NCBI GenBank assembly: GCA_009783265.1
Contig: WRHM01000002.1
Location: 94,564-158,563 of the forward strand
Source of the DNA: Oscillospiraceae bacterium
GTDB taxonomy: Bacteria; Bacillota; Clostridia; Oscillospirales; WRJC01
DNA length: 64,000 bases
Reading direction: 5' to 3'
The position numbers were made by a program, and so were the translations under genes. Shown here piece by piece: positions 13,375 to 63,323 of this stretch; position 1 is the stretch's first letter; the number at the start of each line of letters is the position of its first letter. The notes under the pieces are model-generated. The model did not search any database. It worked only from the letters and a program-made list of their open reading frames with translations, and was not told the DNA's origin.

Positions 13375-14130
13375 ATGGCAACAAAAAAAATAGGTCTCCA
13401 GATTTATTCTATCCGCGATATTTATTCTAAAAATCCTGCAGAAGCGTTTAAATTAGTCAAAGACTGCGGTTATGACGCAGTCGATATGTTCGGCAATGTT
13501 ACTATGGGGGCAGAAGAATTAAAAAAACTTTTAGACGACTTTGGACTTGAATGCTGCGGCTGGCATGCGTCATGGGATTATGTAAGCAAACCTGATATTT
13601 TAGAAATGTTTGTGGCGTATAATAAAGTCATAGGTAATAAATTTTTAATAATCCCGGGACTTCCGTGGGAATTTATGAAAAACAAAGACACATGGCTCGA
13701 AGCCGCGAAAAAAATAAACGAAATAGCTGCTCAATTAAAAAAACATGGTATGTACACAGGAATGCATTCACACGCAGGAGAATTTAAACCGGTTGACGGA
13801 TTAGATAAATTTCCATGGGATATACTCGCAGAAAATACTGTTGACGACGTTGTTTTACAGCTTGATATGGGTAATACTTATGCTACGGGAGTTGAACCTG
13901 TAGCAATTTTGAAAAAATATCCGGGAAGGGCCCATACAGTACATATAAAACCGTATTCTTTGACAAAAGGCATGGGAGTACCGATAGGCGAAGACGATAT
14001 AGACTGGGCAGAAACAGTAAAATTTTGTAATAGTCAGGGAAATACAGAATATTTTATCGTCGAATACGAAGAAGAAGACGCAAAATCCGGAATAAAAGCA
14101 TGTATTGACAATTTCAAAAAATATTTATAA
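13375..14130 (+). CDS. Sugar phosphate isomerase/epimerase (xylose-isomerase-like TIM barrel).
   Basis: 251 aa with TIM-barrel AP-endonuclease-2/xylose-isomerase-like blocks. This is one of three such paralogs in the window. Confidence 0.6.
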   Translation: MATKKIGLQIYSIRDIYSKNPAEAFKLVKDCGYDAVDMFGNVTMGAEELKKLLDDFGLECCGWHASWDYVSKPDILEMFVAYNKVIGNKFLIIPGLPWEFMKNKDTWLEAAKKINEIAAQLKKHGMYTGMHSHAGEFKPVDGLDKFPWDILAENTVDDVVLQLDMGNTYATGVEPVAILKKYPGRAHTVHIKPYSLTKGMGVPIGEDDIDWAETVKFCNSQGNTEYFIVEYEEEDAKSGIKACIDNFKKYL

Positions 14131-14163
14131 AATTTATAAAGCAATATTTTATTTATAACAGGG

Positions 14164-14200
14164 CAGGGGATTTAATATTTTAAATCCCCTGCGAATTTTT
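14164..14200. terminator. Bidirectional intrinsic terminator CAGGGGATTTAA-tatt-TTAAATCCCCTG followed by a T-run, between convergent genes.
   Basis: Perfect 12-bp inverted repeat seen in the sequence, flanked by TTTTTT on the plus side and an A/T-run on the other. Confidence 0.6.
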
Positions 14201-15285
14201 TATATAAATATTTTTTTTATTACTGATTCAATATATTTATTTCTTTCGTCTGTTTTATTAGCAAATTTATAAATATTTTCAATTGAATTATTCAGATTTT
14301 TAATTTCTAAAAAATATTTTATAACTTCATCTATTATTGAATTATAACATTTATAAATAAATCTCAATTTTTGTTTGTTTTCTTTTTTGAAATTTTTATC
14401 TATAAATCTTTCCATATTTATAAAATTATACCGGTCTTCATAAATTTTATTTAATTCTTTGTGTTTTATTATAAATAATATTTTTTGATCTTTAAGATAA
14501 ATTGCTTTTATTTTCGCAGGATTTAAAACGTCGGGGCATATTATTTTATTTATATTTTCAAATTTTTCAAATATACTTTCTGTATATTGCCAGCCTGAAA
14601 AATATTCGTTTGAAATATAAAATATTTTTATGGCTTCATTTTCAAATGTATCGAGTTCTTTTAAACCGGTTGCGGAAACAGAATTAATAAATATATATTT
14701 ATCAATACATTCGTTTTTATAATCGTTTAAATGTTTTTCATTTATATATTTATACAAAATCCTGTTTATTGATAAATTTAATTTTTCCTGATTTATATAT
14801 TTATTTGAAAGTTTTATGTTAATCTCTGATAATTCGTTCGCCGCTATTAAAAATTTATATGCTATTTTATTATATTCATTTTTCTTTTTTATTAAATCAT
14901 AAATTTCATTTTTTTGTTTTGTTAATAACATTTCGTCATAAAAATCATTCAGGTTAATTATATTTTCAAATAATACAGGATAATTTAACATTTTTATTGA
15001 TATTGAAATATATAAATCTTCGTTTATTATTGCTGTTTTAAGTTCATTTATAATTATTCCGTTTAAGCAATTTATTTCAACCGGATTTAAAAAATATTCT
15101 ATTGTATATTTTTTATCTTCGGCTTTTTTTGCAATTTTATTTAAAATATATGCTTTATCATAACCTTTTATTATATATATTTTTTCGATTTTTTTTGAAT
15201 TATATATCGTGTTAAATAAATTCACGAAACCAATGCATGTATTTGCACATGCGAAATAATAATTTTTATTATTTATATTTGTCAA
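14200..15285 (-). CDS. Hypothetical protein, 361 aa, Asn/Lys/Ile-rich, with no recognisable domain.
   Basis: Long intact ORF with no overlapping alternative. Sits at the convergent terminator. I recognise no motifs. Confidence 0.5.
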   Translation of the reverse strand: MTNINNKNYYFACANTCIGFVNLFNTIYNSKKIEKIYIIKGYDKAYILNKIAKKAEDKKYTIEYFLNPVEINCLNGIIINELKTAIINEDLYISISIKMLNYPVLFENIINLNDFYDEMLLTKQKNEIYDLIKKKNEYNKIAYKFLIAANELSEINIKLSNKYINQEKLNLSINRILYKYINEKHLNDYKNECIDKYIFINSVSATGLKELDTFENEAIKIFYISNEYFSGWQYTESIFEKFENINKIICPDVLNPAKIKAIYLKDQKILFIIKHKELNKIYEDRYNFINMERFIDKNFKKENKQKLRFIYKCYNSIIDEVIKYFLEIKNLNNSIENIYKFANKTDERNKYIESVIKKIFI

Positions 15286-15405
15286 TTTCTTTCCCTCCTA
15301 AAAATTTATCTTCAATAATATTTTATTCAAAAAATAAATTTATGTTAAAGAAATTATATATTTTTTGTCGAAAAAGAAATATTTTTATTTATTTTATTAT
15401 TAAAT

Positions 15406-16527
15406 TTATAAAGAAAAGTGATTTTTTAGAATATTTACTATTCTTTCAGAAGCGTGACCGTCGCCATAAGGATTTACGGATTTAGCCATTTTATCGTATT
15501 CCTGTTTATCTTCAAGTAATAACACGGCATTGTTATATATATTTTCTTCAGAAACACCTACAATTTTGACTGTTCCGGCTTTAACGGCTTCAGGACGTTC
15601 TGTTTCTGTTCTGCACACTAAAACAGGTTTTCCTAAAGCAGGGGCTTCTTCCTGAAGGCCTCCGGAATCTGTCAAAATAAAATAACATTTATTATATAAA
15701 TTATGGGTATCTTCGACATCTAATGGCTTAATTAAATATATATTATTTATATTATCAAGAATTTCATGAGCTTGTATAGACGCTTGATTAGGGTGTACTG
15801 CATAAATTATTTGTAAATTATTTGAATACTGCAAAGCTAATCGTTTTACAGCTGTAAAAATATTTTTCATAGGTTCACCAAAATTATCACGGCGGTGCAT
15901 TGTCATAAAAATTGTTTTTTTATCTGTAAAGTTAATGCCTTGCAATTCTTCGCTTTTGAAATTATAATTATCTTTAACCATTAAATGCAAAGCGTCAATA
16001 ACTGTATTTCCGGTGACATAAATATTATCATGTATATTTGATTTATGAAGATTATCAGCGTTTGATTTAGTAGGTGCAAATTGTAAATTTGCGATATTTC
16101 CCGTTAATATTCTCAATATTTCTTCAGGATGCGGAGAATACTTGTCACCTGAGCGAAGCCCGGCTTCTACATGACCTACCGGAATTTTATTATAAAATGC
16201 TGCTAATGCAGCACTGAAAGAAGTGGCGTTATCGCCGTGAACCAAAACAATACCAGGTTGAACTTCACCCATAACCCAATCAAGCCTGTCAATCATTTTG
16301 CTTGTCACGCTCGCAAGAGTTTGTCCCGGCTGCATTATATTTAAATCATAATCCGGAATTATATTAAAAATATTCAAAACTTGATCAAGCATTTCGCGAT
16401 GTTGCGCTGTAACACATACTATATTATCAAATATATCGGGATATTTCGCAATTTCAAGAATCAACGGAGCCATTTTTATAGCGTCTGAACGTATTCCGAA
16501 TACGCTTAATATTTTTTTCTTTGACAT
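15406..16527 (-). CDS. wecB: UDP-N-acetylglucosamine 2-epimerase (non-hydrolysing).
   Basis: N-terminal motif ILSVFGIRSDAIKMAPL and the C-terminal GT-B-like fold blocks characteristic of WecB/MnaA. 373 aa. Confidence 0.85.
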   Translation of the reverse strand: MSKKKILSVFGIRSDAIKMAPLILEIAKYPDIFDNIVCVTAQHREMLDQVLNIFNIIPDYDLNIMQPGQTLASVTSKMIDRLDWVMGEVQPGIVLVHGDNATSFSAALAAFYNKIPVGHVEAGLRSGDKYSPHPEEILRILTGNIANLQFAPTKSNADNLHKSNIHDNIYVTGNTVIDALHLMVKDNYNFKSEELQGINFTDKKTIFMTMHRRDNFGEPMKNIFTAVKRLALQYSNNLQIIYAVHPNQASIQAHEILDNINNIYLIKPLDVEDTHNLYNKCYFILTDSGGLQEEAPALGKPVLVCRTETERPEAVKAGTVKIVGVSEENIYNNAVLLLEDKQEYDKMAKSVNPYGDGHASERIVNILKNHFSL

Positions 16528-16614
16528 AAAAAATTTTCCTCACTTGTTTAAAATTTAATAAATATATTATATAATAACATATAAAATAATTTATTACAAG
16601 GAGAATATTAATTA

Positions 16615-17373
16615 ATGATAAATGATTTGAAAGTTATAATATTAGCGGCGGGGAGGGGGACACGTTTAAATTCAAAAGAAGCAAAAATACCAAAACATAT
16701 GCGGGAAGCCGCAGGAAAACCTGTGTTATATTATGTTTTGAAATCCGTTGATTTTATAAATGATAAAAAAGATATAATAATAATTGTAGGTTATATGAAA
16801 GAAATAATCATGAAAACATTCCCAGAATATACGTTCGTGGTTCAGAATATAGAAAAAGGTTACGGCACAGGTGCAGCGACGAAATGCGCTGAAGAAGCAG
16901 TCGGCGAATTTTCAGGTAATATTTTTATTCTTCAAGGTGACGCGCCGTTAATAACTTCGGAAACTCTATTAAACATGAGAAACGAGCATATTAAAAATAA
17001 AAATGATTGTACGATTTTATCGTGTGAAATAAACGAAGTTTTAAACCTCGGCAGAATTATACGCGGTAAAAACGGAAATTTTTGCGAAATCGTAGAAAAT
17101 AGAGACTGCACGGACGAACAGCGAAAAATCAAAGAATATAATGCCAGCGTTATGCTCGCCGATTCAAAAAAACTTTTCGAACAGTTGAAAAATTTAAAAA
17201 ACAACAATAAAAGCGGAGAATATTATTTAACGGACATTCCAAAATTATTTCTTGATAATAATTATAAAGTCGGAATATATAAGTCAACAAATGACGTTGA
17301 AATTTACGGTGCAGATTCAATAGAGGACTTAACCCGTATTGAAAATATATTAAAAAACAATTCCGCAAAATAA
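16615..17373 (+). CDS. Sugar-phosphate nucleotidyltransferase (NTP-transferase domain, GlmU-N/LicC-like).
   Basis: N-terminal motif ILAAGRGTRL (the G-x-G-T-R-L signature of NTP transferases). 252 aa. Divergent from wecB. Confidence 0.65.
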   Translation: MINDLKVIILAAGRGTRLNSKEAKIPKHMREAAGKPVLYYVLKSVDFINDKKDIIIIVGYMKEIIMKTFPEYTFVVQNIEKGYGTGAATKCAEEAVGEFSGNIFILQGDAPLITSETLLNMRNEHIKNKNDCTILSCEINEVLNLGRIIRGKNGNFCEIVENRDCTDEQRKIKEYNASVMLADSKKLFEQLKNLKNNNKSGEYYLTDIPKLFLDNNYKVGIYKSTNDVEIYGADSIEDLTRIENILKNNSAK

Positions 17374-17572: not shown

Positions 17573-17770
17573 ATGTCAAAATCAATGTTGAATTTTACCA
17601 AAGGAGTTGTTACAGGAGTAGTAGTCGGAACTACCGTAAGCATGGTTATGCACGGTTTGTCAAAACCGGCTCATAATTCTATAATGCATTTAAACAGTAA
17701 AAAAGGCGCGGGAAAAATGATTAAAAATATAGGTTCCGCAATAAGTCATATAAACGATATGTGGAAATAG
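17573..17770 (+). CDS. Small protein (65 aa) with a hydrophobic Gly/Val-rich N-terminal half.
   Basis: Strong RBS (AGGAGG, 8 nt before ATG) and its own downstream terminator hairpin. Confidence 0.45.
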   Translation: MSKSMLNFTKGVVTGVVVGTTVSMVMHGLSKPAHNSIMHLNSKKGAGKMIKNIGSAISHINDMWK

Positions 17771-17807
17771 TAAAATAATAAATAAAAAATTAACAAAAAA
17801 TTAAAAA

Positions 17808-17852
17808 GCAAATGAAAAGTTCGGTTTTACCTTTTTTATTTGCTTTTTTTTA
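17808..17852 (+). terminator. Intrinsic terminator: an AU-rich stem GCAAAUGAAAAG / CUUUUUUAUUUGC followed by UUUUUUUU.
   Basis: Seen in the sequence immediately after the 17573-17770 ORF. Confidence 0.5.
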
Positions 17853-18036
17853 TGGTAAATTTAATTTATAATTGTTTTTTACCTTGATTATTTTATAAAT
17901 ATATAGTACAATTATCTAATGTGCGGATTTTAAACAAATAATTATAAATTTAACAAAATATTATTTTTAATATGACATGATGTTGTCAGGTGTATTATGA
18001 TATAATTTATATTATATCAACAAATTGGAGGTCATT

Positions 18037-20433
18037 ATGGGTAAAAACAAAAAAAACACGAACAAATATTCTAAAGAGAGTAATCCCCTGATTTCAAATA
18101 GTTCAAATAAAAATTCTAAAGAATATTATTTTGTCAAGTTTCCGGATAATATAATAGATATATTTAAAACAAAAAACGTAAATTTTGACGATATTTTACT
18201 TACTTTTAAATCCGGTATAAACAGTGATAAAATTTTTTGCGATGTGTATATATGCGTAGATAAAAATAATATTTATATATTATCCGGCGCAGAATCAGTT
18301 AAAGAAATAACGAAAAGAGATATAAAAGAAAGAAACGCGAATATAGAATTTGTCGAAATAAATTATCAGGTCTTCCCTATTCAGGATTTAACGGATTTCA
18401 AATCTGAAGAAAATATAACTTATGGACGTTATATAGCTAAACTAAACGAAAATTACATAACTTTATTTAATTATACTTTTACTGACCGGACATTTATAAA
18501 TGATTTTGACAAATATCTAAAATTGATAAAAGAAAAAGGCGTTTTCGAACTTGACGAACATGATAAAAATAACCCTGATTTTATTAATCGCGAAGAAAAA
18601 AAATGCCCGAAATGCGGCAATTATTACCCATCGCCGGAAAGAAAGATTTGTCCTAACTGCATGGATAAATCCAGACTCCTTGTCAGAATGTGGGATTTTA
18701 TCAAAAATTTTAAGAAAAACTTGATTATTATGCTTATCATGCTGATTTTGTCTGCGTTAATAGGCGTCGCAATCGGATATATAAACGGCGTCGGACTATA
18801 TGACAAAGTTTTAAATCCTGAAGATCCCGTTTGGTATAAACAAATAGGCACGCTTGTTTTAATTATTCTTTCGATTGATATTATATCTTATATCATAGGA
18901 ATGGTTTACGGAATAATAATGGCGAAAGTTTCGGCTCTTGTAGCTTATGACTTAAAAAAGATAATATTTGAAGCTATACAACGGCTTTCAATGAGTTTTT
19001 TTTCCAGCCGTCAAACAGGAGGTCTTATGTCGCAATTCAGCAGAGATTCAAATTCTGTATATTTTTTTCTTATTAATGATTTAAATTATTTCTTTTTATG
19101 CATATTTAAAATTGTCGTTGCGACGGTTATTATGATTACGATTAATCCTATATTAACTCTTATTGTTTACGCTACGGTTCCTATATTTATAATAACATTT
19201 AAAAACCGCAGGGGATACTTAAGGGAATTATGGCATAAAATGTTTGCGAAAAGCCGCGATATGGGAGCTACGCTTTCAGATATTTTAACCGGAGCAAGAG
19301 TTGTAAAAGTATTTTCCAAAGAAAAAGAAGAAGTAATGAAATTCAACAGAAAAAGCGGAAATGTAAGAGATATGACGTTAATTGCTGCAAGATATGAAAA
19401 TATATTCTTCCCTGCCGTATGGTTTATACTCATGTTTGGCAGCTTTCTGATATGGCTTTTCGGCGGCTGGTTTGTAATTAAAAATTACGGCGGAATGACT
19501 TTCGGGTTATTGCAAACTTTTATATTTTATTTAGGTTATGTTCTCGACCCGCTCGGATTTTTCGTAAATTTTTTGAGAAGGGGCGTCAATACTTTAAACG
19601 CCGTACAGAGAATTTTTGAAATAATGGACGCAATGCCTGATATTATTGAAATTGAAAACCCGGTCAAAATAGAAAATTTCAAAGGATCGGTCGAATTTAA
19701 AGAAGTAGAATTTTCTTATGAAAAAAACAGGAAAATAATCGACAGCGTTTCATTTGAAATTGATCCGGGAAAAGCACTCGGTATCGTCGGGCATACAGGA
19801 GCGGGAAAAAGCACTTTAGCAAATCTTATGACGAGATTATATGACGTAAACAAAGGCGAAATTTTAATCGACGGAATAAATATAAAAAATCTTTCGTTTG
19901 AAGAATTGCACAGCATGATTTCTATTGTTTCACAAGAAACTTATTTATTTATAGGTACAATCGCCGAAAATATAAAATACGCAAAAAAAGACGCGACTCC
20001 CGACGAAATAATAAGAGCCGCAAAAGCAGCGTCAGCTCATGATTTTATAATGCAGTTGCCCGATGGTTATCAAACGAGAGTCGGTAACGGGCAAAAAGAA
20101 TTATCCGGCGGTGAAAAACAAAGATTATCTATTGCGAGAGCTGTGCTTAAAAACCCGAAAATATTAATTATGGACGAAGCGACCGCGGCAATGGATACAG
20201 AGACAGAGCGTCAGATACAACGTTCACTTTCTAATCTTACAAAAGACCGCACTACTATTTTAATAGCGCACAGGTTATCAACTTTGAGAGACGTTGATAA
20301 ATTAATCGTAATGGAAAACGGAAAAATGACAGAAAGCGGAACACATGCTGAATTAATCGCAAAAAAAGGCATATATTTTAATTTATATAAAATGCAGGCA
20401 CAGGCTTTAAAATCAATTGGAATTGAACAATAA
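18037..20433 (+). CDS. ABC transporter ATP-binding/permease fusion protein (type I exporter half-transporter). It carries an N-terminal soluble domain of about 190 aa plus a Cys4 zinc ribbon.
   Basis: Start moved to the ATG at 18037 (RBS GGAGG 5 nt upstream); the track start at 18025 is a TTG. Zinc ribbon CPKCG-x10-CPNC lies just before TM1. Six-TM exporter domain. NBD with Walker A GHTGAGKST, signature LSGGEKQR, Walker B ILIMDEAT and H-loop IAHR. Confidence 0.8.
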   Translation: MGKNKKNTNKYSKESNPLISNSSNKNSKEYYFVKFPDNIIDIFKTKNVNFDDILLTFKSGINSDKIFCDVYICVDKNNIYILSGAESVKEITKRDIKERNANIEFVEINYQVFPIQDLTDFKSEENITYGRYIAKLNENYITLFNYTFTDRTFINDFDKYLKLIKEKGVFELDEHDKNNPDFINREEKKCPKCGNYYPSPERKICPNCMDKSRLLVRMWDFIKNFKKNLIIMLIMLILSALIGVAIGYINGVGLYDKVLNPEDPVWYKQIGTLVLIILSIDIISYIIGMVYGIIMAKVSALVAYDLKKIIFEAIQRLSMSFFSSRQTGGLMSQFSRDSNSVYFFLINDLNYFFLCIFKIVVATVIMITINPILTLIVYATVPIFIITFKNRRGYLRELWHKMFAKSRDMGATLSDILTGARVVKVFSKEKEEVMKFNRKSGNVRDMTLIAARYENIFFPAVWFILMFGSFLIWLFGGWFVIKNYGGMTFGLLQTFIFYLGYVLDPLGFFVNFLRRGVNTLNAVQRIFEIMDAMPDIIEIENPVKIENFKGSVEFKEVEFSYEKNRKIIDSVSFEIDPGKALGIVGHTGAGKSTLANLMTRLYDVNKGEILIDGINIKNLSFEELHSMISIVSQETYLFIGTIAENIKYAKKDATPDEIIRAAKAASAHDFIMQLPDGYQTRVGNGQKELSGGEKQRLSIARAVLKNPKILIMDEATAAMDTETERQIQRSLSNLTKDRTTILIAHRLSTLRDVDKLIVMENGKMTESGTHAELIAKKGIYFNLYKMQAQALKSIGIEQ

Positions 20434-20455
20434 ATAATAACAAGGTGATTAACTC

Positions 20456-21328
20456 ATGATTACAAAACGAAGATATAAAATACTCGTGGATTTTGAACGT
20501 GTACATAAATTTTTAACAGAAACTTATGATATAAACTGCACTCTTTTACCGCAATATTTTGAATACGCGCATATGCACGGTTATTTTGACTATTTTAATA
20601 CTCATCATTTCGGAATCTGGGAAGATAACGGAAAAATTATAGGTATCGCGTGCTATGAAATGATTTTGGGCGAAAGCTGCCATTTGCACACGCATAAAAA
20701 TTATAAATTTCTTCTGCCGGAATTATTGGAATGGGCGGAATATAATTTATACGGAATAAAAGACGGCAAGCGCATATTGGAAATAGAAATAATGGAGAAA
20801 GAACCTGAAAAAAGAGAATTGCTTAAATCCACGGATTATTTAATTGCTTACAGCGGACCGTGCAATATATATCCGTATGATAAACCGTTCCCTGAGTGTA
20901 AATTACCGGAAGGATTTACGCTGATTGACGGCACAAACGCAGATTATGTGAAAATACACCATTGTTTTTATAAGGGATTTGACCACGGCGACGATATAAA
21001 CGACGCAGACGCAAACGGAAGAATTTTTGCATGCAATGCTCCCAATGTTGATTTATCGCTTTGGACTTATATAGTCGCGCCTGACGGCGAATACGCTTGC
21101 GGTCTCGGAATGTGGTATGATAAAACAAATAAATACGCCTATCTTGAACCACTTGCCACAATTCCGAAATACAGACGTATGGGACTTGCGACGGTTTGTT
21201 TGACAGAAGCAATGAAAAAGACAAAAGAACTCGGAGCAAAATATTGTTTTGGCGGAAGCCGTGAATTTTACACAGATATAGGTTTTGAAACTATCATGAA
21301 CTACGAAACTTGGAAAAAAGAATGGTAA
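20456..21328 (+). CDS. GNAT-like acetyltransferase-fold protein with an N-terminal extension of about 180 aa.
   Basis: C-terminal GNAT motif-A-like YRRMGLATVCL...ELGAKYCF. 22-nt gap from the upstream ABC gene. Confidence 0.5.
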   Translation: MITKRRYKILVDFERVHKFLTETYDINCTLLPQYFEYAHMHGYFDYFNTHHFGIWEDNGKIIGIACYEMILGESCHLHTHKNYKFLLPELLEWAEYNLYGIKDGKRILEIEIMEKEPEKRELLKSTDYLIAYSGPCNIYPYDKPFPECKLPEGFTLIDGTNADYVKIHHCFYKGFDHGDDINDADANGRIFACNAPNVDLSLWTYIVAPDGEYACGLGMWYDKTNKYAYLEPLATIPKYRRMGLATVCLTEAMKKTKELGAKYCFGGSREFYTDIGFETIMNYETWKKEW

Positions 21329-21371
21329 AACGGTAAGATAAAAACAGAAATTAAGAGAGGTTATTTTTTAT

Positions 21372-22148
21372 ATGGAAGCAATGCAAACAAACAAAAATAA
21401 TATAAACGATATAGTTGACATAGTATATTTAACTCCGGAAAACGCAAAATTTACAATATCTGAAAATAATTTTTTGCAGTTAAACGCAAATGTGGAATAT
21501 CCGGAAACTCTTCAGGACAGCGCAAAAAAAGAATCTGAAGATAATAAAGAAAATGAAAATCAAGCTGATAAAATCGAAGAATTCTTTTTCGAGCGTATAT
21601 TTTTACATAGAGCTTTCCCGTTTGATAATCCGTATAAATACATATCAGTCGTAGGTAATTTTCCCAAACGTGAAGAAGATAAAAAAGAAGACGAAGAAAA
21701 AAAAGATTCTTCGTCTACGCCTCCGAATGAGGAAGGCAATGAGAATAAAAATAGTAATAGTACGGAAGAAAATAAAGGTGACTCCCCTGCCCAACCTCGT
21801 GAAAATACGACTTCTCTCGGAGATTTAAAAGAAATAGGTATTATTTCGGATATTGCAATATTTGACGATATTCAACAGCAATATATAATAAACGAACTCG
21901 ACAGAAAATATTTTGTTCCGGTTATAGATTTTATATATTCTATGAAAGACAAATTCGGATTTTCATATTGGGAAGTAAAAACAAACGTAGGAAAAATAAA
22001 ATTTACGGTCAATGACGCTTACAGGAATATTTTAAAAGTTACAGACGACAGAATTATGATCAACGACGTAAATGGCAACAGATACGAAATAAAAAGCTTA
22101 GAAAATTTTGATCAGTCGAGTTACAGAAAAATCGAAATATATCTGTAA
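21372..22148 (+). CDS. DUF1854-like protein. It is bipartite, with two folded parts separated by an acidic/Ser/Asn-rich low-complexity linker.
   Basis: Low-complexity segment KREEDKKEDEEKKDSSSTPPNEEGNENKNSNSTEENKGDSP. The C-terminal part (FVPVIDFIY...RIMINDVNGNRYEI) is PH-like. The DUF1854 assignment is from memory of ABC-adjacent proteins, not from a search. Confidence 0.4.
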   Translation: MEAMQTNKNNINDIVDIVYLTPENAKFTISENNFLQLNANVEYPETLQDSAKKESEDNKENENQADKIEEFFFERIFLHRAFPFDNPYKYISVVGNFPKREEDKKEDEEKKDSSSTPPNEEGNENKNSNSTEENKGDSPAQPRENTTSLGDLKEIGIISDIAIFDDIQQQYIINELDRKYFVPVIDFIYSMKDKFGFSYWEVKTNVGKIKFTVNDAYRNILKVTDDRIMINDVNGNRYEIKSLENFDQSSYRKIEIYL

Positions 22149-22192
22149 TATCTGGAAATAATTAGTATTATAAAAAGGCGGTGAGTTAAAAT

Positions 22193-24478
22193 TTGAAAGA
22201 AAAAGCATTATCGCAAAATGTTATAAATTCTGCGAAAGAATCTGTTTTGCATACTCTCGCAAATGAAATAGATAAGACAGCAAAAGAAAAAAATGATATT
22301 AACCCCGGTAAAATTATATATAAATTTAATTATAATATAAGCAAATCAAATAATATAACTTTTGGCGGGGTTATTTTAACGGAAAATTATATATTTTCGT
22401 ATGACGAAGAATCAAAATCTTTAAAACAATATGATTTGAATAAAATAGATAATTTAAAATGCGTGATGCAGGTAGGGTGTTTATCTGTTGATTTTAAATA
22501 CGACGGAGAATTGACGGAATTATGCAGGGGAAATTTAGAATATCAGCATGTATTCCCTGATTTTACTGCTCAGTTTGATTTATTTTTGATAGACAGAGCA
22601 AAAGAAATTTCGGATAAAAGCGAAAAAAATATTTGCCCGAAATGCGGAGGATTTTTTGAACCCGGTACAGAATTTTGCGCTAATTGCGCAAGCAAATCGG
22701 GAATTATCTGGAGAATTTTAAAACTTGCTGCGGAATATAAAATGCAACTAATTATTTCAGCCGGTTTAGCTGTAGCCGCAAGTATCACGGCAATATTTAT
22801 TCCAATATTGCAAAAAAATCTAATAGATAATTATATCGCTCCGTCAGATACTCAAACATTATTAAGCGTAACTTTTATTGATATTTTACTGGTAATAATA
22901 GGAATTGTCGTTTTGAATTTAATAAGAGAATTTCTGACTGTCGTTAAAAATTTAATAGTCGCTAAAATAGGCACGAATTTATCTTATAATCTTCGCTCTA
23001 TTATATTTAAAAAAATACAGGACATGTCAATTTCAAAAATACTAAAACGCACGGCGGGCGAATTAATAAACAGAGTTCAGGGTGACACTGAAAATTTAAA
23101 TGAATTTTTATCGTTTGTCGTTCCGGATTTAGTGCACCAGTTTATTCTTACAATAATAATCTCAATAGTTATGCTTCGTTATAACTGGGTTCTCACTTTA
23201 ATTATTTTTCTCCCCTTGCCCGTTTATTTTTTGATAAACGCTTTTGCGTGGGGATTCATGGAGAGTTTATTTATCAAAGCATGGAAAACGCGTTCGGCCG
23301 CAAGTTCTGTATTATACGATATTTTTTCCGGAATAAAAGTCGTAAAATCTTACGGTACGGAAAAACAGGAAATAGAAAGATGCGGCAAAGCGTTAAAAGC
23401 GCAGGTCGATATAGAAATGAAAAGCGAAATATTTTTTAGTATATTATATCCAATCGCAAAATTTTTTCTGCATGTGGGCTCGTATTTTATAATTTTATAT
23501 GTCGGAAATAAAATAGTTACGGTCGTTGGCGGAAAACCGTTGATGACAAGGGGCGAAATGGTGCAGTTTATGTCTTATTTAAGCTTAATCTACGGACCAC
23601 TTGAATGGATAGGAAATATAGGACGCTGGCTTTCATATACGCTTACTTCAGCTTCAAAATTATTTGAAATCATAGACCAGAAAATAGAGATTAAAGTTCA
23701 GGAAAATCCGGTTCAGAAAGATATAAACGGATATATTGATATAAAAGACGTAAATTTCGGTTATAAAGATTATGAAATGGTTTTGAAAGATATAAATTTA
23801 TCTGTAAAACCCGGTGAAATGATAGGGATAGTCGGTAAATCCGGGGTAGGAAAATCTACTTTGATAAATTTATTAATGCGTTTATACGACGTTAATTCCG
23901 GTGAAATAATTATTGACGGAATTAATATAAAAGATTATGACCCTAATATTTTGCGAACGCAAACCGGAGCAGTTCTACAGGAAACATTTTTATTTTCCGG
24001 TACGATTTACGATAATATAGCTTACGCTAAAAGCGAAGCGACGAGAGATGAAATTATACGTGCGTCAAAATTAGCGAACGCTCACCAGTTTATTATGAAA
24101 CTTCCTGACGGTTATAATACAAAAGTCGGCGAACACGGACATACTTTATCAGGCGGCGAACGTCAAAGAATAGCGATTGCGCGGGCTGTTTTACATAATC
24201 CGAAAATTTTAATATTAGACGAAGCGACTTCTGCGCTTGATACAGAAACAGAAGCGCTTGTTCAAGACGCTCTGCAAAAATTAATCCAAAACCGAACAAC
24301 TTTCGCAATAGCACACAGATTATCGACATTACGTAACGCAACAAAACTTATAATAATCGATAAAGGAACTATCGCCGAAATGGGTACGCACGAAGAATTA
24401 ATGTCTAAAAAAGGCATATATTATTCGCTCGTCATGGCTCAGAGGCAAATGTCTAAAATGGCAATCATAAAAAATTAA
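22193..24478 (+). CDS. Second ABC transporter ATP-binding/permease fusion protein. It carries an N-terminal soluble domain of about 150 aa plus a Cys4 zinc ribbon.
   Basis: Probable TTG start. Zinc ribbon CPKCG-x9-CANC before TM1. Six-TM domain. Walker A GKSGVGKST, signature LSGGERQR, Walker B ILILDEAT, H-loop IAHR. Confidence 0.8.
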   Translation: MKEKALSQNVINSAKESVLHTLANEIDKTAKEKNDINPGKIIYKFNYNISKSNNITFGGVILTENYIFSYDEESKSLKQYDLNKIDNLKCVMQVGCLSVDFKYDGELTELCRGNLEYQHVFPDFTAQFDLFLIDRAKEISDKSEKNICPKCGGFFEPGTEFCANCASKSGIIWRILKLAAEYKMQLIISAGLAVAASITAIFIPILQKNLIDNYIAPSDTQTLLSVTFIDILLVIIGIVVLNLIREFLTVVKNLIVAKIGTNLSYNLRSIIFKKIQDMSISKILKRTAGELINRVQGDTENLNEFLSFVVPDLVHQFILTIIISIVMLRYNWVLTLIIFLPLPVYFLINAFAWGFMESLFIKAWKTRSAASSVLYDIFSGIKVVKSYGTEKQEIERCGKALKAQVDIEMKSEIFFSILYPIAKFFLHVGSYFIILYVGNKIVTVVGGKPLMTRGEMVQFMSYLSLIYGPLEWIGNIGRWLSYTLTSASKLFEIIDQKIEIKVQENPVQKDINGYIDIKDVNFGYKDYEMVLKDINLSVKPGEMIGIVGKSGVGKSTLINLLMRLYDVNSGEIIIDGINIKDYDPNILRTQTGAVLQETFLFSGTIYDNIAYAKSEATRDEIIRASKLANAHQFIMKLPDGYNTKVGEHGHTLSGGERQRIAIARAVLHNPKILILDEATSALDTETEALVQDALQKLIQNRTTFAIAHRLSTLRNATKLIIIDKGTIAEMGTHEELMSKKGIYYSLVMAQRQMSKMAIIKN

Positions 24479-28651: not shown

Positions 28652-29974
28652 ATGGATAAAATTGAATTTGAAAAATTGTTTCTGTTGTGTAAATCTTCGC
28701 TTGAACGGTTTGTATATTTTAAATTACCGTCAAAATTTGACGGCGACGATATACTTCAGGAAGTCGCGATTTCGGCGTATAAAAACATAGGCGAAATTAA
28801 GAATCCCGAAAATTTTAAAGCTTGGGTTTTAAAAATCGCTAAAAATAAATGTAATGATTTTTACAGGAATCTCGCGAAAAAGCATGAAATTCCGTTAGAC
28901 GAAATGACTGACAACGTAGTTTCAATGAACCGTTATGGGATTACAGATACGCAAATTGTCCGTGAAACTTTAAGCAATCTTGCCGATAAAGATAAACAAA
29001 TTTTGTTTTTGTATTATTTCAAGAATAAACCGCAGGCTGAAATTGCGTCAATATTAAATATCCCTGTCGGGACTGTAAAAAGCAGATTACATACGGCAAA
29101 ACAAAACTTCAAAAAATCCTATCCTTTCCCTCCCCTATTAAAAGAATCTAAAAAATTAAAAGGAGAAAAAGTTATGAAAAACACAAAATTTTTACCCGAT
29201 ATTATGCCGGAATATAAAATAACGCAATCAAAAAAAACCCCGTTTGACGTAAAATGCGAGGAAGCTCCCGGTTGGTTTATAATACCGAAACTCGGTGAAA
29301 AAATAACATGGGCAATGTATGATTTTCCAGAACGCACGCGCAGCGAAGTATATGATATTAAAGTTACGGGACGCGCAATAGTTCATGGAATCGAAGGCGT
29401 CGAAATTATTTCCGAAGAACGCAACACAGGAAATTCTTCTCATAAAAATGATAACTGTACCCGTAATTTTGTCGCACAATTAACTGATACTCACAGCCGT
29501 TTTCTCGCCGAAAGTTATATGCAAAACGATATAAAAATATATCACACGTTTTTAGACGGCGATGAATTTAATATGTACTGCGGAGAAGATAATTGCGGCG
29601 ACGAAATTAATTTGTCGCCAAAAGGTATTATCAAAAGAAACGGAAATATTATAACTTCTAAAAATAACGAACCCGCAACGGATATAACCGGTCGTTATAA
29701 CGTTGAAATAAACGGTAAGATTTATGATACTGTTTGTTTTATTGATTTTGCGGTTTATAATCCGCCGGTTTTCGCAGAAAAGTATATAGACCAAAACGGC
29801 AGAACTGTTTTATGGCGCAGGTTCAACAGAAACGACTGGAAAACCGAACGTTATAACGAACATTTCAACCGCAAAGGCAACTGGAGCGAAATGTTTCCCG
29901 AAAACGAACAAGTCATTGTCAACGGCGAAATTTATGTTCACTGGTATGACTGTATTACAGATTATATATTATAA
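28652..29974 (+). CDS. Sigma-70 family (ECF-like region 2 plus region 4) RNA polymerase sigma factor fused to a soluble C-terminal domain of about 270 aa and unknown function.
   Basis: Region 2 DDILQEVAISAYKNIGEIKNPENFKAWVLKIAKNKCNDFYR. Region 4 HTH AEIASILNIPVGTVKSRLHTAKQNF. No TM segment. There is an in-frame RBS-like AAAGGAG plus ATG at about 29173. Confidence 0.7.
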   Translation: MDKIEFEKLFLLCKSSLERFVYFKLPSKFDGDDILQEVAISAYKNIGEIKNPENFKAWVLKIAKNKCNDFYRNLAKKHEIPLDEMTDNVVSMNRYGITDTQIVRETLSNLADKDKQILFLYYFKNKPQAEIASILNIPVGTVKSRLHTAKQNFKKSYPFPPLLKESKKLKGEKVMKNTKFLPDIMPEYKITQSKKTPFDVKCEEAPGWFIIPKLGEKITWAMYDFPERTRSEVYDIKVTGRAIVHGIEGVEIISEERNTGNSSHKNDNCTRNFVAQLTDTHSRFLAESYMQNDIKIYHTFLDGDEFNMYCGEDNCGDEINLSPKGIIKRNGNIITSKNNEPATDITGRYNVEINGKIYDTVCFIDFAVYNPPVFAEKYIDQNGRTVLWRRFNRNDWKTERYNEHFNRKGNWSEMFPENEQVIVNGEIYVHWYDCITDYIL

Positions 29975-54891: not shown

Positions 54892-56517
54892 TTATTCCGG
54901 CAACGTATCGCAAAACATTATCGTGTTGACCGAATGCTTTTGATTTTCCGTGAGTGGTTTGAGCGTGCCGTTTGCGAGGAGAATTTCAAGAACATACGCT
55001 ACCATATTTTGATCTGACAGACAATTAGTACACCATGCGCGGTATAAATCATGCATGTGCGCAGGATATTGCGATTTTTCGAGATTATATATTTCTTTGT
55101 CAAATTCTTCGCCGATTAATTTAAGTTCTTCTGTCATCCCGGGCAACAAATTCTTAAAATCATTTTCAGAATCTTTGGAAATTATCATGTTGACATATTC
55201 CGAATCGTTTTTTTGTATTAAATAGCCTTTGTCAAACAACCGCTTAAATTTGTCGGCATATTCGGGTATTTTTGTGATTTTTCCGGCGATATATTCGTAA
55301 AGATATTCGTAATCCTCGGATTTATTTTCAATATAAGTATTCGGCCTGCTGTCATAATATGAATTAAGCTGCCATGAATTATATATATGTTCGCTGCTGC
55401 CTCTTGTCATATTATTTGGAACATTATATTTTTCTTCGTTATAATTTACTTTTATATCTTTTTTTACATATCCCAAAGCAATATATTCTCCGCCGTCCTT
55501 GCGTTTTACATTATAACGCGACAATGTTCCCCAATCAAACGGCGCTCTTAACATATATCTGCAAGAATATCCGATTATTGACCACATTAAAAAATTAAAA
55601 TCGTTTTCCGGAGTGTATATTTTCATTGATTTGTAATTTTTCATCGTATCAAATAACAACGGAATATATTTTTCGCAAATGACTTTTGCGTATTTTAAAA
55701 ATAGTTTATGTATTTCTTCCATCACTTCTTTTGACGGTTCTCTTATAAAAATATTTGTCTGGTATTTTCCGCCCGCAATTTTATCCAAAAAGCTGTAATC
55801 TTCAAGATACGCGACTTCGTCCTCGATAAAAGCCGCAGGCACTCCGAGTTCCTCAGCGATTTCTGTTATAGTTTTAGGTTCGTAATATGCGGCATACACT
55901 ACGTTTTGCGAGATAAGTTTTGATAAATAATACGATGTGTTTTTATTTTCGGGGCCGGGATTTCCGCTCATTCCAAAGTCTATTTTAACCGGATTCATTC
56001 CAAGATTTATTCTTTCACTCATTTTATTAATATCCTCCAATTTGTTTTTAAGTTGATTTCTGGCGTCGTGAAGATGCCATTTTACTGTTCCAAGCGGAAT
56101 ATTTAACCGTTCTGCTATTTCATATAACTTTAATTTTTGAAAATAGTGCATGACTATAATTTCCCGCTGGATTTTACCGAGATAGGAAATCTCTTTACGC
56201 AAACGGATATAATCTTCGTTTTTCTCAAAATCAATCGTAAAATCATTTTCGCACGGTATATTCACTTCGTCAAGTGAGATATATCTGCCTTTTATTTTTT
56301 CATTTACGAATCTTGCGTAGACATTACTTGCGACCCGATATATATAACCGTTGATGTTATACACTTCGCCGGCTTTTAATAACGAAGTGTAAACGTCAAA
56401 AGTTATCCTCGAAGCGAGTTCTTCAGCTTTGTCCGTGTTTATCGTTTTTGAGAGAGCGAACCCGAATATTTTTTGCATATATCCGGCGATGATTTCATCG
56501 ACATATTTTTTATCCAT
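54892..56517 (-). CDS. Sigma-70 family (ECF-like) sigma factor with a C-terminal extension of about 350 aa and unknown function.
   Basis: Region 2 DKAEELASRITFDVYTSLLKAGEVYNINGYIYRVASNVYARFVNE. Region 4 QREIIVMHYFQKLKLYEIAERLNIPLGTVKWHLHDARNQLK. The long C-terminal domain is soluble. Confidence 0.7.
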   Translation of the reverse strand: MDKKYVDEIIAGYMQKIFGFALSKTINTDKAEELASRITFDVYTSLLKAGEVYNINGYIYRVASNVYARFVNEKIKGRYISLDEVNIPCENDFTIDFEKNEDYIRLRKEISYLGKIQREIIVMHYFQKLKLYEIAERLNIPLGTVKWHLHDARNQLKNKLEDINKMSERINLGMNPVKIDFGMSGNPGPENKNTSYYLSKLISQNVVYAAYYEPKTITEIAEELGVPAAFIEDEVAYLEDYSFLDKIAGGKYQTNIFIREPSKEVMEEIHKLFLKYAKVICEKYIPLLFDTMKNYKSMKIYTPENDFNFLMWSIIGYSCRYMLRAPFDWGTLSRYNVKRKDGGEYIALGYVKKDIKVNYNEEKYNVPNNMTRGSSEHIYNSWQLNSYYDSRPNTYIENKSEDYEYLYEYIAGKITKIPEYADKFKRLFDKGYLIQKNDSEYVNMIISKDSENDFKNLLPGMTEELKLIGEEFDKEIYNLEKSQYPAHMHDLYRAWCTNCLSDQNMVAYVLEILLANGTLKPLTENQKHSVNTIMFCDTLPE

Positions 56518-60153: not shown

Positions 60154-61974
60154 TTATTTAAATAAATCAGAATCAGTATGCGGAAGAAACAATGCGCCTA
60201 AATATTCGTCCATATACCCGGATTCATTGCTTAAATCAATATATGTTATCCTGTCCGCGATTTCCATAACTTTTTTTCCTTTTTCTTCTGATAATAATAT
60301 CTGATACGCTCCAATTATCGAAGTGTTTCCAAGATATATAATTTTTTCCGGCGGAATATTCGGCAATAACCCTATTGTTTTTGCGTTTTCGATATTTAAA
60401 TATCGGCCGAAACCTCCGGCTATATATATTTTATCAATATCATCAAATGCCAATCCCATATTATTTAAAAGAGTTCGGCATGCTGAAAATATCGCGCCTT
60501 TCGCACGGATTAAATTATCTATATCGGCTTCGCTTATCGTTATGTTTTCTGTGATATAAAATTTATACGGTTTTTTGTCTTTTTTGATTTTATCAGGAAA
60601 TTTATCAGTAAATCTTCCTGCGGCGTCAATTATATTTTTTTCAAACATTTCGCCGACAATCGATATTATTCCAGAACCGCATATTCCAACAGGCGGCGCG
60701 TTATCTATTGTTTTAATTGTTATTTCTCCGGTTTCGCTGATATTAAAACAATCTATCGCGCCCTGTGACGCTCTCATGCCGAATTCTATCCCGCCGCCTT
60801 CAAACGCCGGACCTGCCGAACAAGCGCATCCAAGTATAAATTCGTTATTGCCGAGTAAAATTTCACCGTTTGTACCTATATCCAAAAATAATATAATTTC
60901 GTTTTTATCTTCGCATAACGGAGTACACAAAGCCCCCGCAGTTATATCGCCGCCGACATAACTTCCGACAGACGGAGCAAATTTAACCGGAGCATTTATA
61001 TTTATTTTAATTCCTGTTTCAAACGCGTTAAATACCGGAATTTTAAAAACTGCCGGAGTATATGGATCAAGCCTTATATATTCGGGAATTATTCCTAAAA
61101 ATAAATGTATCATCGTAGTATTTCCGGCTATTGACGCGTAATATATTCGATTTATATTTATTTTATTTTCATCGGATATGATTTTAATTAAATTATTTAT
61201 TGTATTTAGAATTCGGCTCTGTAATTCGTTTAAATTTTTTTGTGCGTAATTAATTCTTGTTATAATATCAAGTCCGCATTCTATTTGAGCGTTATAATCA
61301 GTTTTTCGTGATATTATTTTTCCGGTAATTAAATCAACAATCCAAACAGTAACAGTCGTAGTGCCTATATCTATGGCAATCCCGTATATATTAGTATTTT
61401 CAATATTTATTATATCAATAATATTTAAATTTTCGTTTTCAAAATAGTAAAGCATTTTAACTTTACCGTCATTTTCTCTGAGTTTTAACGGCAAAGTTTT
61501 TAATATTTCCAACGGAATTTTTATACTTTTAATTATTTCAGAAAATTTTAATTTTAATGATTTTTCTAAACGGTCAAAATCAGATAATCCGTCAAGCGGC
61601 GCAGCTTTTAAAATCTGTAAATCTATTTGCTTTACAATTGGATTTACGGTAAAATCGTTTATTTTTTTAACATCAAAAACATCGTCGAATTTTCCTTCTT
61701 CTCCGTAAAGCCCCGATAAAATTTCTATTGTGACATCTTCGTCTAATATATTCGTCTGACATATCAACACATGGTTTTCTTTTGAATTTTTATAACTGCC
61801 GGATTTTACGTCAACTTTTCCGGATATAATTTTCACTAAACATTTACGGCAAACACCTTTTCCGCCGCATGGAGTTTCAACGGAAACACCCGCAAGCCTC
61901 GCGGCTTCCAAAAGCGGCGAGGCTGTTTTTGCTTCTATTATTATATTTTGCGGCATAAAAGTTATTTTCGGCAT
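60154..61974 (-). CDS. Corrinoid activation/regeneration protein (RACo-like): an N-terminal [2Fe-2S] ferredoxin fused to an ASKHA ATPase domain (DUF4445).
   Basis: N-terminal plant-type ferredoxin motif CGGKGVCRKCLVKI...C. The central and C-terminal parts carry actin-like ATPase glycine-rich loops (DIGTTTV, DIGTNGE). 606 aa. Adjacent to acsC. Confidence 0.7.
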   Translation of the reverse strand: MPKITFMPQNIIIEAKTASPLLEAARLAGVSVETPCGGKGVCRKCLVKIISGKVDVKSGSYKNSKENHVLICQTNILDEDVTIEILSGLYGEEGKFDDVFDVKKINDFTVNPIVKQIDLQILKAAPLDGLSDFDRLEKSLKLKFSEIIKSIKIPLEILKTLPLKLRENDGKVKMLYYFENENLNIIDIINIENTNIYGIAIDIGTTTVTVWIVDLITGKIISRKTDYNAQIECGLDIITRINYAQKNLNELQSRILNTINNLIKIISDENKININRIYYASIAGNTTMIHLFLGIIPEYIRLDPYTPAVFKIPVFNAFETGIKININAPVKFAPSVGSYVGGDITAGALCTPLCEDKNEIILFLDIGTNGEILLGNNEFILGCACSAGPAFEGGGIEFGMRASQGAIDCFNISETGEITIKTIDNAPPVGICGSGIISIVGEMFEKNIIDAAGRFTDKFPDKIKKDKKPYKFYITENITISEADIDNLIRAKGAIFSACRTLLNNMGLAFDDIDKIYIAGGFGRYLNIENAKTIGLLPNIPPEKIIYLGNTSIIGAYQILLSEEKGKKVMEIADRITYIDLSNESGYMDEYLGALFLPHTDSDLFK

Positions 61975-61991
61975 AATTTTTATATTGTTTT

Positions 61992-63323
61992 TTATTTTAA
62001 TAATACACTTTTCACAAAACTTTCAATATCAGCAGCTTCACCCGGTCCGACGATAATTTTATATCCCGGCAATTCTTCTTCGAGTTCGCCGCTTATTTGC
62101 GCAACATATCCCGGAATTATTATCTCACGGGTATCCACTGAATTTGCAAGCCCGATTTCTTTGATAAAAGCGGCGATTTTTGCTCCTGAAAATTTCCCTG
62201 CCGCCCACGCTGTCAAAACGCTCATTCCTTCGCATTCGGGAATTATAAGCCATGCGTTTACGCCGCTGTTTTCAATTTCACCGGAAACAAGAAAATAAGT
62301 GAGAGAAAAATTTGTAGTGACAAATATCGGCGAATTTCTGTCAGGTTCGCCTATCGCGTATAATTTCGGTTCGACCTGTATCGGTTTTTGCGGGTCTGTG
62401 TAAATATTTTGCCGTAAAGTCATCAACGTTACAAGCTGTGCGGGGTCAAATACCGGTAAAACTATAATTCCGCCGTATTTTATTATTTCGTTTGTAGCAA
62501 TAACCATATCTTCAGTTTCGTCGCCTGTTTCTATATATTTTAACGTAGCGTATCCGAGAGATTTTTCGCTGTTTTTTAACGCGGCTTTTCTCGCGATAGA
62601 ATTTGTCTGGAAAGCTTCTGCAAGCGAATAAGTTTTAAATTCTATAAGTAAATCGTTGAACCCGTCCTTTTTTAATTTTGCCGTAATTTCGCGGATCCCG
62701 TCAATATCGTCGGCAGTTACGGCTAATATATGCCTGTTTTCTCTGGCGATTTCACGCATTTTATCGGCATTTTCACCAGTCACTCCCGAAATTATACTTA
62801 TTGAACCCGCGACGGCTTTAGCCGCCGCTTCAACAGCTTCGTCAGAACCGCGTAAAATCAACGGCAATTCTGTTATTTCATATATTTTTTTCGCAATTTC
62901 GGAATAAATATCATTATCAGAATTTTTTTGCGTAACCGCAATCGCTCCTACTGTCAAAATTTCCCCTACCCTTTCGAGTTTATATTCTTTAATTTTTTTT
63001 GCAATTTCAAAAGCGTCAGGGTTATCGGCATTTATGTTGATTGCGATAACCGTTCTGTTTACGAAAGTTTTTTCATGTCTGTAAAAAACAGTTTCTTCAC
63101 CCAGAGAACTTATATTTTTATTGCCGATCTTTACGCCTTTAACAGGAGGTTCGCTCGCTGCTCCTAATATTTGTTTCGCTTCTTCTGACGCATACGGACA
63201 TTCGTCCAAACTCGCTTTTTTCCCCGCGAGTTTCATTGCAAACGCCATGCATGTGCTGCAACCGCACTCTTTGCAGTTTGTCGCCGGCAAAAGTTTTTGT
63301 ATCTGTAATCCGGTAAGAGCCAT
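61992..63323 (-). CDS. acsC: Corrinoid iron-sulfur protein large subunit (acetyl-CoA decarbonylase/synthase gamma subunit).
   Basis: N-terminal [4Fe-4S] motif CKECGCSTCMAFAMKL...CPY, central TIM barrel and C-terminal B12-binding Rossmann domain. 443 aa. Confidence 0.8.
   Translation of the reverse strand: MALTGLQIQKLLPATNCKECGCSTCMAFAMKLAGKKASLDECPYASEEAKQILGAASEPPVKGVKIGNKNISSLGEETVFYRHEKTFVNRTVIAININADNPDAFEIAKKIKEYKLERVGEILTVGAIAVTQKNSDNDIYSEIAKKIYEITELPLILRGSDEAVEAAAKAVAGSISIISGVTGENADKMREIARENRHILAVTADDIDGIREITAKLKKDGFNDLLIEFKTYSLAEAFQTNSIARKAALKNSEKSLGYATLKYIETGDETEDMVIATNEIIKYGGIIVLPVFDPAQLVTLMTLRQNIYTDPQKPIQVEPKLYAIGEPDRNSPIFVTTNFSLTYFLVSGEIENSGVNAWLIIPECEGMSVLTAWAAGKFSGAKIAAFIKEIGLANSVDTREIIIPGYVAQISGELEEELPGYKIIVGPGEAADIESFVKSVLLK

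Follow-up and report, generated by a model that had tools for sequence, protein, structure and literature searches.

Two ABC (ATP-binding cassette) half-transporters that each carry an additional soluble N-terminal domain, and that enclose a gene for a DUF1854 protein, raise the question of what kind of transport system they build and whether it belongs to a family already described. The locus in question occupies positions 18037-24478 of the window, the whole 64-kb stretch that was analyzed, DNA from the metagenome-assembled genome of an uncultured Oscillospiraceae bacterium. It consists of four genes, all on the plus strand: the half-transporter genes called here ABC-A and ABC-B and, between them, a GNAT-family acetyltransferase-like gene and the DUF1854 gene (Table 1). 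Genes were taken from a program-made list of open reading frames (ORFs), and the window proteins were scanned with Pfam and NCBIfam profiles. The comparison of loci and profiles presented below shows the triad of ABC-A, DUF1854, and ABC-B as what appears to be a Clostridial heterodimeric branch, sister to the beta-proteobacterial ABC and DUF1854 pump encoded next to cphA/cphA'.

The three-gene core and its proteins

The conserved core of the locus is three genes, not four. A scan of one genome per species yielded 307 matches encoding a relative, of which 80 loci were listed; with seven more fetched by exact-protein look-up, these form the set of 87 related Clostridia loci (L001 to L087) used throughout. 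All 80 listed loci come from metagenome-assembled genomes (MAGs) of uncultured Clostridia (Oscillospiraceae, Ruminococcus, and Eubacteriales), animal guts being the source of many. In all 87, as far as each contig extends, the genes follow the order ABC-A-like, DUF1854, ABC-B-like, with the upstream gene always matching ABC-A best and the downstream gene always matching ABC-B best, a recurrence in independent loci that is more than chance. ABC-A and ABC-B, which are 37% identical, are ancient paralogues always encoded as a pair, and the position of the DUF1854 gene, always between them, shows its product as their predicted obligate partner. A search for synteny of all four genes, proposed with a first-pass annotation of this DNA, thus found three of them syntenic and the GNAT gene left behind. 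The same annotation had read the cluster as a gated or regulated exporter or a signaling complex; a specialized exporter with an obligatory partner is what remains of that interpretation, without a role for the GNAT protein.

The triad also duplicates as a whole. Four MAGs each contain two complete triads on different contigs (L054/L057, L064/L059, L037/L072, and L050/L082), with corresponding components 37-45% identical; duplication and divergence have thus involved all three genes jointly. In each pair, one of the triads falls in a subfamily of seven members with lower scores, whose DUF1854 ORFs are often longer (193-264 amino acids [aa]). The families that flank the triads, among which a MoxR AAA protein, PBP5, a GH106-like protein, and a tRNA synthetase recur, are each present in at most 22 of the first 84 loci (L001 to L084); they are housekeeping genes that show synteny at the level of clades. 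The system has no leader-peptide gene, membrane-fusion protein, or outer-membrane partner. An amidohydrolase downstream of the triad in L001 (12985-14163, plus strand; Amidohydro_1, 392 aa) was set aside as a candidate, as NCBIfam does not identify it as an isoaspartyl dipeptidase and just 2 loci have it.

Both ABC proteins match Pfam ABC_membrane and ABC_tran (residues 229-505 and 569-717 in ABC-A), so that each fuses a six-helix membrane domain to a consensus nucleotide-binding domain (NBD). An AlphaFold2 (AF2) model of ABC-B matched the solved exporters Sav1866, TM287/288, MsbA, TmrAB, and HlyB in Foldseek, aligning over about 585 of 761 residues with TM-scores, normalized to the target, of 0.8-0.87. 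A profile search of the PDB likewise returned the type-IV exporter fold, in matches that begin at about profile position 150. The Walker A, Q-loop, LSGGE, DEAT, D-loop, and AHR motifs are consensus in both NBDs; among full-length orthologues, five of the six motifs were found in 74 of 74 sequences of each half and the signature motif in 72 and 71 of 74. Neither half has the nonconsensus Walker B glutamate, H-loop, or signature of a degenerate ATP site. Since they are always encoded together, the most likely assembly of ABC-A and ABC-B is a heterodimeric type-IV (ABCB/MsbA/Sav1866-like) exporter in which both ATP sites are consensus. The Pfam scan found no Peptidase_C39 domain, the mark of PCAT and HlyB exporters, in the ABC proteins, and matches to TIGR01846 and TIGR01193 were below their cut-offs and confined to the transmembrane domain and NBD.

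What sets the two proteins apart is the region ahead of the first transmembrane helix (TM1). The first-pass annotation described the same arrangement in both, a soluble N-terminal domain followed by a four-cysteine (Cys4) ribbon just before TM1, and this was confirmed: the N-terminal domains of ABC-A and ABC-B are homologous (hhalign probability, 99.6%; E, 9e-24), contain no TM-like segment, and are followed by the ribbon motif in 74 of 74 ABC-A-like and 74 of 74 ABC-B-like full-length orthologues. The four cysteines of the ribbon are invariant in alignments of 48, 40, and 22 sequences, and sub-threshold zinc-ribbon models of Pfam match 40 of 40 N-terminal segments (Zn_ribbon_3 for that of ABC-A). 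The region is also foreign to ordinary exporters, as had been claimed; no solved ABC exporter among the PDB profile and Foldseek matches covers the N-terminal domain and ribbon, and a sequence search of the N-terminal domain against the PDB gave nothing significant beyond generic zinc ribbons.

A PH-like nature had also been suggested for the domain. The AF2 model of ABC-B (mean pLDDT, the predicted local distance difference test score, 79.6; 81-88 in blocks across the PH-like region) has a helix at residues 8-32, seven consecutive strands at 41-113, and a capping helix at 120-133, followed by the ribbon and by TM1 from about residue 168. This strand order is consistent with, without proving, a PH-like topology for the ABC-B domain, while sequence support is weak, with Pfam bPH_3 matches in 4 of 40 family members (best E, 0.009). 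Kinship of the domain with DUF1854 was considered and rejected (hhalign probability, <1%). A word-index search with the ABC-B N terminus alone found one fragment and was superseded by full-length and profile searches. Against 1.84 billion representative proteins, a profile of the N-terminal module recovered 175 clusters at an E of ≤1e-10, with the domain at the N terminus and full-length proteins of 712-791 aa; a few listed matches in several stretches (e.g., P0295, P0302, and P0311) cover only the zinc-ribbon positions and are internal or C-terminal.

The protein encoded between the transporters, recognized in the first pass as DUF1854-like, is a true DUF1854 protein (PF08909, 99.2 bits over residues 151-255 of 258; cut-off, 26.8). 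Its N-terminal part also aligns with full-length relatives, which are mostly 176-190 aa long and align over the whole query. Two low-complexity insertions, present in the window protein and about 58 close relatives, are absent from the relatives of about 180 aa, and the bipartite look ascribed to the protein is therefore a lineage-specific feature. Two ordered halves do exist, but the disordered linker between them is an insertion, and the window protein is an ordinary single DUF1854 protein of about 180 aa that has been interrupted. The AF2 model (pLDDT, 81.4) has low confidence over most of both insertions, falling below 50 at residues 126-148. In alignment, the H, R, A, F, and P of an HRAFPF motif and the N, R, and Y of a GNRYEI motif are invariant. 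The protein has no hydrophobic or TM-like segment, and a DUF1854 profile found nothing significant in the PDB. In one metagenomic representative, P0356 (930 aa), the PH-like domain, zinc ribbon, ABC exporter, and DUF1854 are joined in a single chain, with DUF1854 at residues 764-927, after the NBD (hhalign probability, 99.4%; E, 1.7e-21). Rare ABC-DUF1854 fusions had already been noted by Price et al. (bioRxiv 10.1101/072470), whose preprint is the only literature found on DUF1854, PF08909, or PH-like/zinc-ribbon ABC exporters.

Relation to the cyanophycin-associated pump

The first-pass annotation could not place the system among characterized ones. It can be placed: the top NCBIfam match of both ABC proteins is NF052233, the cyanophycin metabolism-associated ABC transporter (525.8 bits for ABC-A and 517.6 bits for ABC-B; equivalog cut-off, 880), and the best match of the DUF1854 protein is NF052234 (57.1 bits; equivalog cut-off, 150). 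The match to ABC-B spans residues 38-754, and the NF052233 match takes in the N terminus, to profile position 30. NF052233 was also the best family for each of ten full-length proteins recovered with the N-terminal profile (477-619 bits, again below the cut-off); MsbA models ranked second for the ABC proteins. The window genes have the architecture of the family, that is, an ABC protein with a soluble N-terminal domain and Cys4 ribbon and an adjacent DUF1854 gene.

A canonical member of the family illustrates what is shared. On the Ralstonia wenshanensis chromid p56D2 (L088; CP076412.1, 768736-777106), two cphA genes are divergent from a single ABC gene (1,460 bits to NF052233), which is followed by a DUF1854 gene (234.2 bits to NF052234). 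The N terminus of the Ralstonia ABC protein bears a ribbon, CPTC...CPQC, and can be aligned to the N-terminal profile of the Clostridial proteins (probability, 91%; E, 9e-7), and its DUF1854 protein aligns over its full length with the Clostridial one (98%; E, 3.7e-14). Homology to this pump (KOL96_03340/03345 in R. wenshanensis; RR42_RS04420 in Cupriavidus basilensis, where cofitness was studied) is thus detectable in all parts: the N-terminal beta-domain and Cys4 ribbon before TM1, the type-IV core, and the adjacent downstream DUF1854 gene. The Ralstonia locus also has a small GNAT gene (KOL96_03320), about 1.2 kb past its second cphA gene; the presence of this gene is probably coincidental, and it is probably unrelated to the GNAT gene of the window.

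The differences are as consistent as the likenesses. Ralstonia has one ABC gene, whose product is presumably a homodimer, whereas the window has two paralogues flanking the DUF1854 gene; the window DUF1854 protein carries the two insertions, and a GNAT gene is interposed. The Ralstonia genes diverge from two adjacent cphA genes, whereas neither the window nor any of the 87 Clostridia loci (1.3 Mb altogether) was found to contain cphA; a tblastn search of these sequences with the two Ralstonia CphA proteins gave only two weak matches of about 105 aa. The linkage to cphA that goes with the NF052233/NF052234 system is therefore not seen within these sequences. In Acidovorax and Cupriavidus, cphA/cphA' show cofitness with DUF1854 and the ABC transporter, from which export of an amino-acid polymer was proposed for the beta-proteobacterial system (bioRxiv 10.1101/072470). 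The architecture is accordingly captured already by NCBIfam and by one fitness study and is not categorically new, while the Clostridial heterodimeric, cphA-free triad falls short of the equivalog cut-offs, and no description of it was found in the literature.

Operon features and neighboring genes

The ORF list confirmed four codirectional genes with short spacers (22, 43, and 44 nucleotides [nt]). We agree with the first-pass reading that they probably form one transcription unit, given the spacers of 22-44 nt and the lack of internal terminators. ABC-A starts with an ATG at 18037, with GGAGG at 18027-18031, six bases ahead. The start codon of ABC-B is a TTG, supported by a 100%-identical 761-aa NCBI protein (P0122), and the gene after ABC-B, at 24623, has a perfect TTGACA-17-TATAAT of its own. 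A riboswitch or other Rfam RNA was sought in the operon leader as a clue to the cargo, and none was found.

Table 1. Coordinates of genes and sequence features in and next to the operon (window positions unless a locus is named)
Feature	Position	Strand	Description
ABC-A half-transporter	18037-20433	+	798 aa; N-terminal soluble domain, Zn ribbon, 6-TM exporter domain, consensus NBD
GNAT-family acetyltransferase-like gene	20456-21328	+	290 aa; lineage-specific insertion
DUF1854 gene	21372-22148	+	258 aa; soluble protein (PF08909)
ABC-B half-transporter	22193-24478	+	761 aa; architecture as ABC-A
Promoter-like site upstream of ABC-A	17972-18001	+	ATGACA-18-TATGAT; consensus scan, 10/12 matches; pattern match only
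Cys4 zinc ribbon, ABC-A	18604-18660	+	Residues 190-208, CPKCG-x10-CPNC, CPKCGNYYPSPERKICPNC; regex match
Cys4 zinc ribbon, ABC-B	22634-22687	+	Residues 148-165, CPKCG-x9-CANC, CPKCGGFFEPGTEFCANC
Predicted PH-like beta-sandwich and C-terminal helix, ABC-B	22313-22591	+	Residues 41-133; AF2 secondary structure
First low-complexity insertion in DUF1854	21495-21575	+	Residues 42-68; missing from ~180-aa relatives; reduced pLDDT
Second insertion in DUF1854	21660-21821	+	Residues 97-150; acidic/Lys/Ser/Asn-rich disordered linker; missing from ~180-aa relatives
wecB/uridylyltransferase pair	15406-17373; L002 5514-7521; L085 2115-4094		~9 of first 84 loci

Just upstream of the operon lies a gene of 65 aa (17573-17770, plus strand) with a strong ribosome-binding site (AGGAGG) and one hydrophobic stretch, for which the Pfam and NCBIfam scans gave no match. 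It was considered as an exported peptide and rejected: only L085, L086, and L087, the closest relatives, conserve it immediately ahead of ABC-A (66-83% identity), and an AT-rich hairpin-like stretch and T-run, read by eye, follow it at about 17797-17850.

In this clade only, wecB (UDP-GlcNAc 2-epimerase, 464 bits) and a gene for a 252-aa uridylyltransferase resembling the N terminus of GlmU lie immediately upstream of the triad, a proximity that might reflect no more than synteny within the clade or else point to a link with envelope sugars. An ORF of 361 aa at 14200-15285 (minus strand), in a region of very high AT content (GC, 0.23 for the bin 14001-16000), has no Pfam match and matches weakly the "hypothetical protein" PRK06851 models of NCBIfam; an unannotated 377-aa gene at the equivalent position of L085 may, by position, be its counterpart. 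Elsewhere, the window encodes two sigma-70 region 2/4 proteins with long C-terminal extensions (28652-29974, plus strand, 440 aa; 54892-56517, minus strand, 541 aa) and, at 60154-63323 (minus strand), Wood-Ljungdahl-type genes for a RACo corrinoid activase-like protein and the CdhD/AcsD delta subunit of carbon monoxide dehydrogenase (CODH)/acetyl-CoA synthase.

Proposed mechanism and competing explanations

We propose, with somewhat better than even confidence, that the locus encodes a three-subunit ABC export machine for a cytoplasmic polymer or peptide. ABC-A and ABC-B would form the heterodimeric type-IV exporter; their N-terminal domains would be cytoplasmic because of the N-in topology of this exporter class; and the DUF1854 protein would be a stoichiometric cytoplasmic subunit docked on the cytoplasmic face. 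The PH-like domains and DUF1854 would together form a module for recognizing cargo or for gating, by analogy with the C39-like domain of HlyB and PCAT exporters and the C terminus of Wzt. The cargo would be made in the cytoplasm and need not resemble cyanophycin, given the lack of a linked cphA. Taken alone, what this reading says about structure and evolution is very likely; the part that concerns cargo recognition is tentative, and we would not put it at even odds.

Two known systems inform the model. HlyB, which is among the Foldseek matches, and the PCAT exporters are likewise type-IV exporters with a soluble cytoplasmic domain before TM1, a likeness that would support a role for the N-terminal domain in recruiting cargo, although their domain is a papain-like C39 fold and the one here is predicted to be a PH-like beta-sandwich with a zinc ribbon. 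In the O-antigen ABC transporters, the C-terminal carbohydrate-binding domain of Wzt, a cytoplasmic beta-rich module after the NBD, selects the polymer by recognizing its end, and in the P0356 fusion DUF1854 holds the corresponding position. This second analogy is one of concept only, as Wzt/Wzm is a type-V and not a type-IV transporter and is not known to be related to the DUF1854 system in sequence or fold.

Several points weigh against the proposal. The window proteins score far below the NF052233 and NF052234 equivalog cut-offs, cphA is missing from the window and the 87 loci, and polymer export by the beta-proteobacterial branch is itself a proposal drawn from fitness data only. Around the first 84 triads, no cargo gene, synthetase, or other conserved neighbor was found. 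The export direction, the physical complex of ABC-A, ABC-B, and DUF1854, and the role of the PH-like domains are what we infer, and the PH-like assignment draws on AF2 topology and the weak bPH_3 matches.

Might the locus encode an ordinary heterodimeric multidrug or xenobiotic efflux pump of the YheI/YheH, BmrCD, or TM287/288 type, with DUF1854 and the added domains serving just to adjust stability or regulation? The core is indeed nearest in fold and sequence to Sav1866, TM287/288, TmrAB, and MsbA, no dedicated biosynthetic gene is linked, and TM287/288, TmrAB, BmrCD, and Rv1273c/72c are likewise encoded by two adjacent half-transporter genes and share the fold at 27-32% identity (Foldseek). 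These pumps, however, have neither an N-terminal PH-like domain and ribbon nor a DUF1854 partner, whereas all 87 triad loci strictly conserve DUF1854 and the N-terminal domain and ribbon, and the three genes are duplicated jointly, which points to a specialized machine. Both ATP sites are consensus, unlike those of many drug-pump heterodimers, several known examples of which have one degenerate site, and NF052233 outscores every drug-pump model. We therefore regard a drug pump as unlikely.

A flippase for lipids or glycolipids (MsbA/PglK-like), moving an envelope precursor with PH-like domains that bind lipid head groups and a DUF1854 protein that regulates, seems to us no more probable than a drug pump. 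Domains of the PH superfold often bind phospholipids, MsbA models are the runners-up in NCBIfam, and the window, L002, and L085 have wecB and the gene for the GlmU-like uridylyltransferase directly ahead of the triad. Envelope-sugar neighbors of this kind, however, accompany only about 9 of the first 84 loci, and the sister branch is tied genetically to cphA/cphA' and not to lipid synthesis.

Still less probable is that the triad is the functional equivalent of the cyanophycin-associated exporter and exports an Asp/Arg polymer made by a cphA gene elsewhere in the genome. Domain architecture and partner protein are the same as in the cphA-linked system, and about 179 Firmicutes genomes encode CphA1 (PMC10206079). 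The scores are nevertheless well below the equivalog cut-offs, and the 64-kb window and the flanks (≤10 kb) of the 87 triads contain no cphA. Moreover, Firmicutes with cphA1 always have cyanophycinase as well, whereas beta-proteobacteria mostly do not (PMC10206079); the former fits intracellular storage, and the scarcity of the enzyme in beta-proteobacteria fits export in that branch only.

The last alternative concerns the GNAT gene. The GNAT fold placed at the C terminus of its product in the first pass is borne out by Acetyltransf_1 (PF00583, 43.6 bits over residues 204-277 of 290; cut-off, 20.7); the protein has no TM-like segment, belongs to no specific NCBIfam family, and found nothing significant in a sequence search of the PDB. 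The gene occurs only in the window and in its closest relative, L085, and is absent from the other 86 of the 87 loci, even from L086 and L087 (DUF1854 66% identical) and from L002 (DUF1854 59% identical), a distribution that shows it to be a recent entrant into the operon and not a core part. That the four genes act together, with the GNAT protein acylating the cargo before export, is thus a poor prospect, for although the gene sits inside the operon with its own ribosome-binding site and short spacers and is retained at 78% identity in L085, its restriction to these two loci leaves the acylation once suggested for it without comparative support, and the protein lacks a specific family assignment.

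Returning to the three-subunit exporter, we offer a more speculative extension, to which we give somewhat less credence than to cargo recognition in general: the paired PH-like/zinc-ribbon domains and the DUF1854 adaptor would select a cytoplasmic polymer or peptide other than cyanophycin for secretion, and a second paralogous triad in the same genome would handle a different cargo. If true, this would represent a new principle of cargo recognition for type-IV ABC exporters and a new class of secreted product in hundreds of gut species.

ABC exporters with a linked DUF1854 gene are common, and the sole functional lead to them is transposon cofitness with cphA/cphA' in two beta-proteobacteria. 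The Clostridial branch adds that the module would work without a linked cphA, that its pump can be heterodimeric, with the DUF1854 gene lying between those of the two halves, and that all three genes duplicate as a unit. DUF1854 and the PH-like/zinc-ribbon N termini are the constant, defining parts of the system, which makes them the most suitable choice for structural and biochemical study. The triad is present in hundreds of species of uncultured gut Clostridia, and its cargo could thus be widespread in the gut microbiota as a secreted or surface product.

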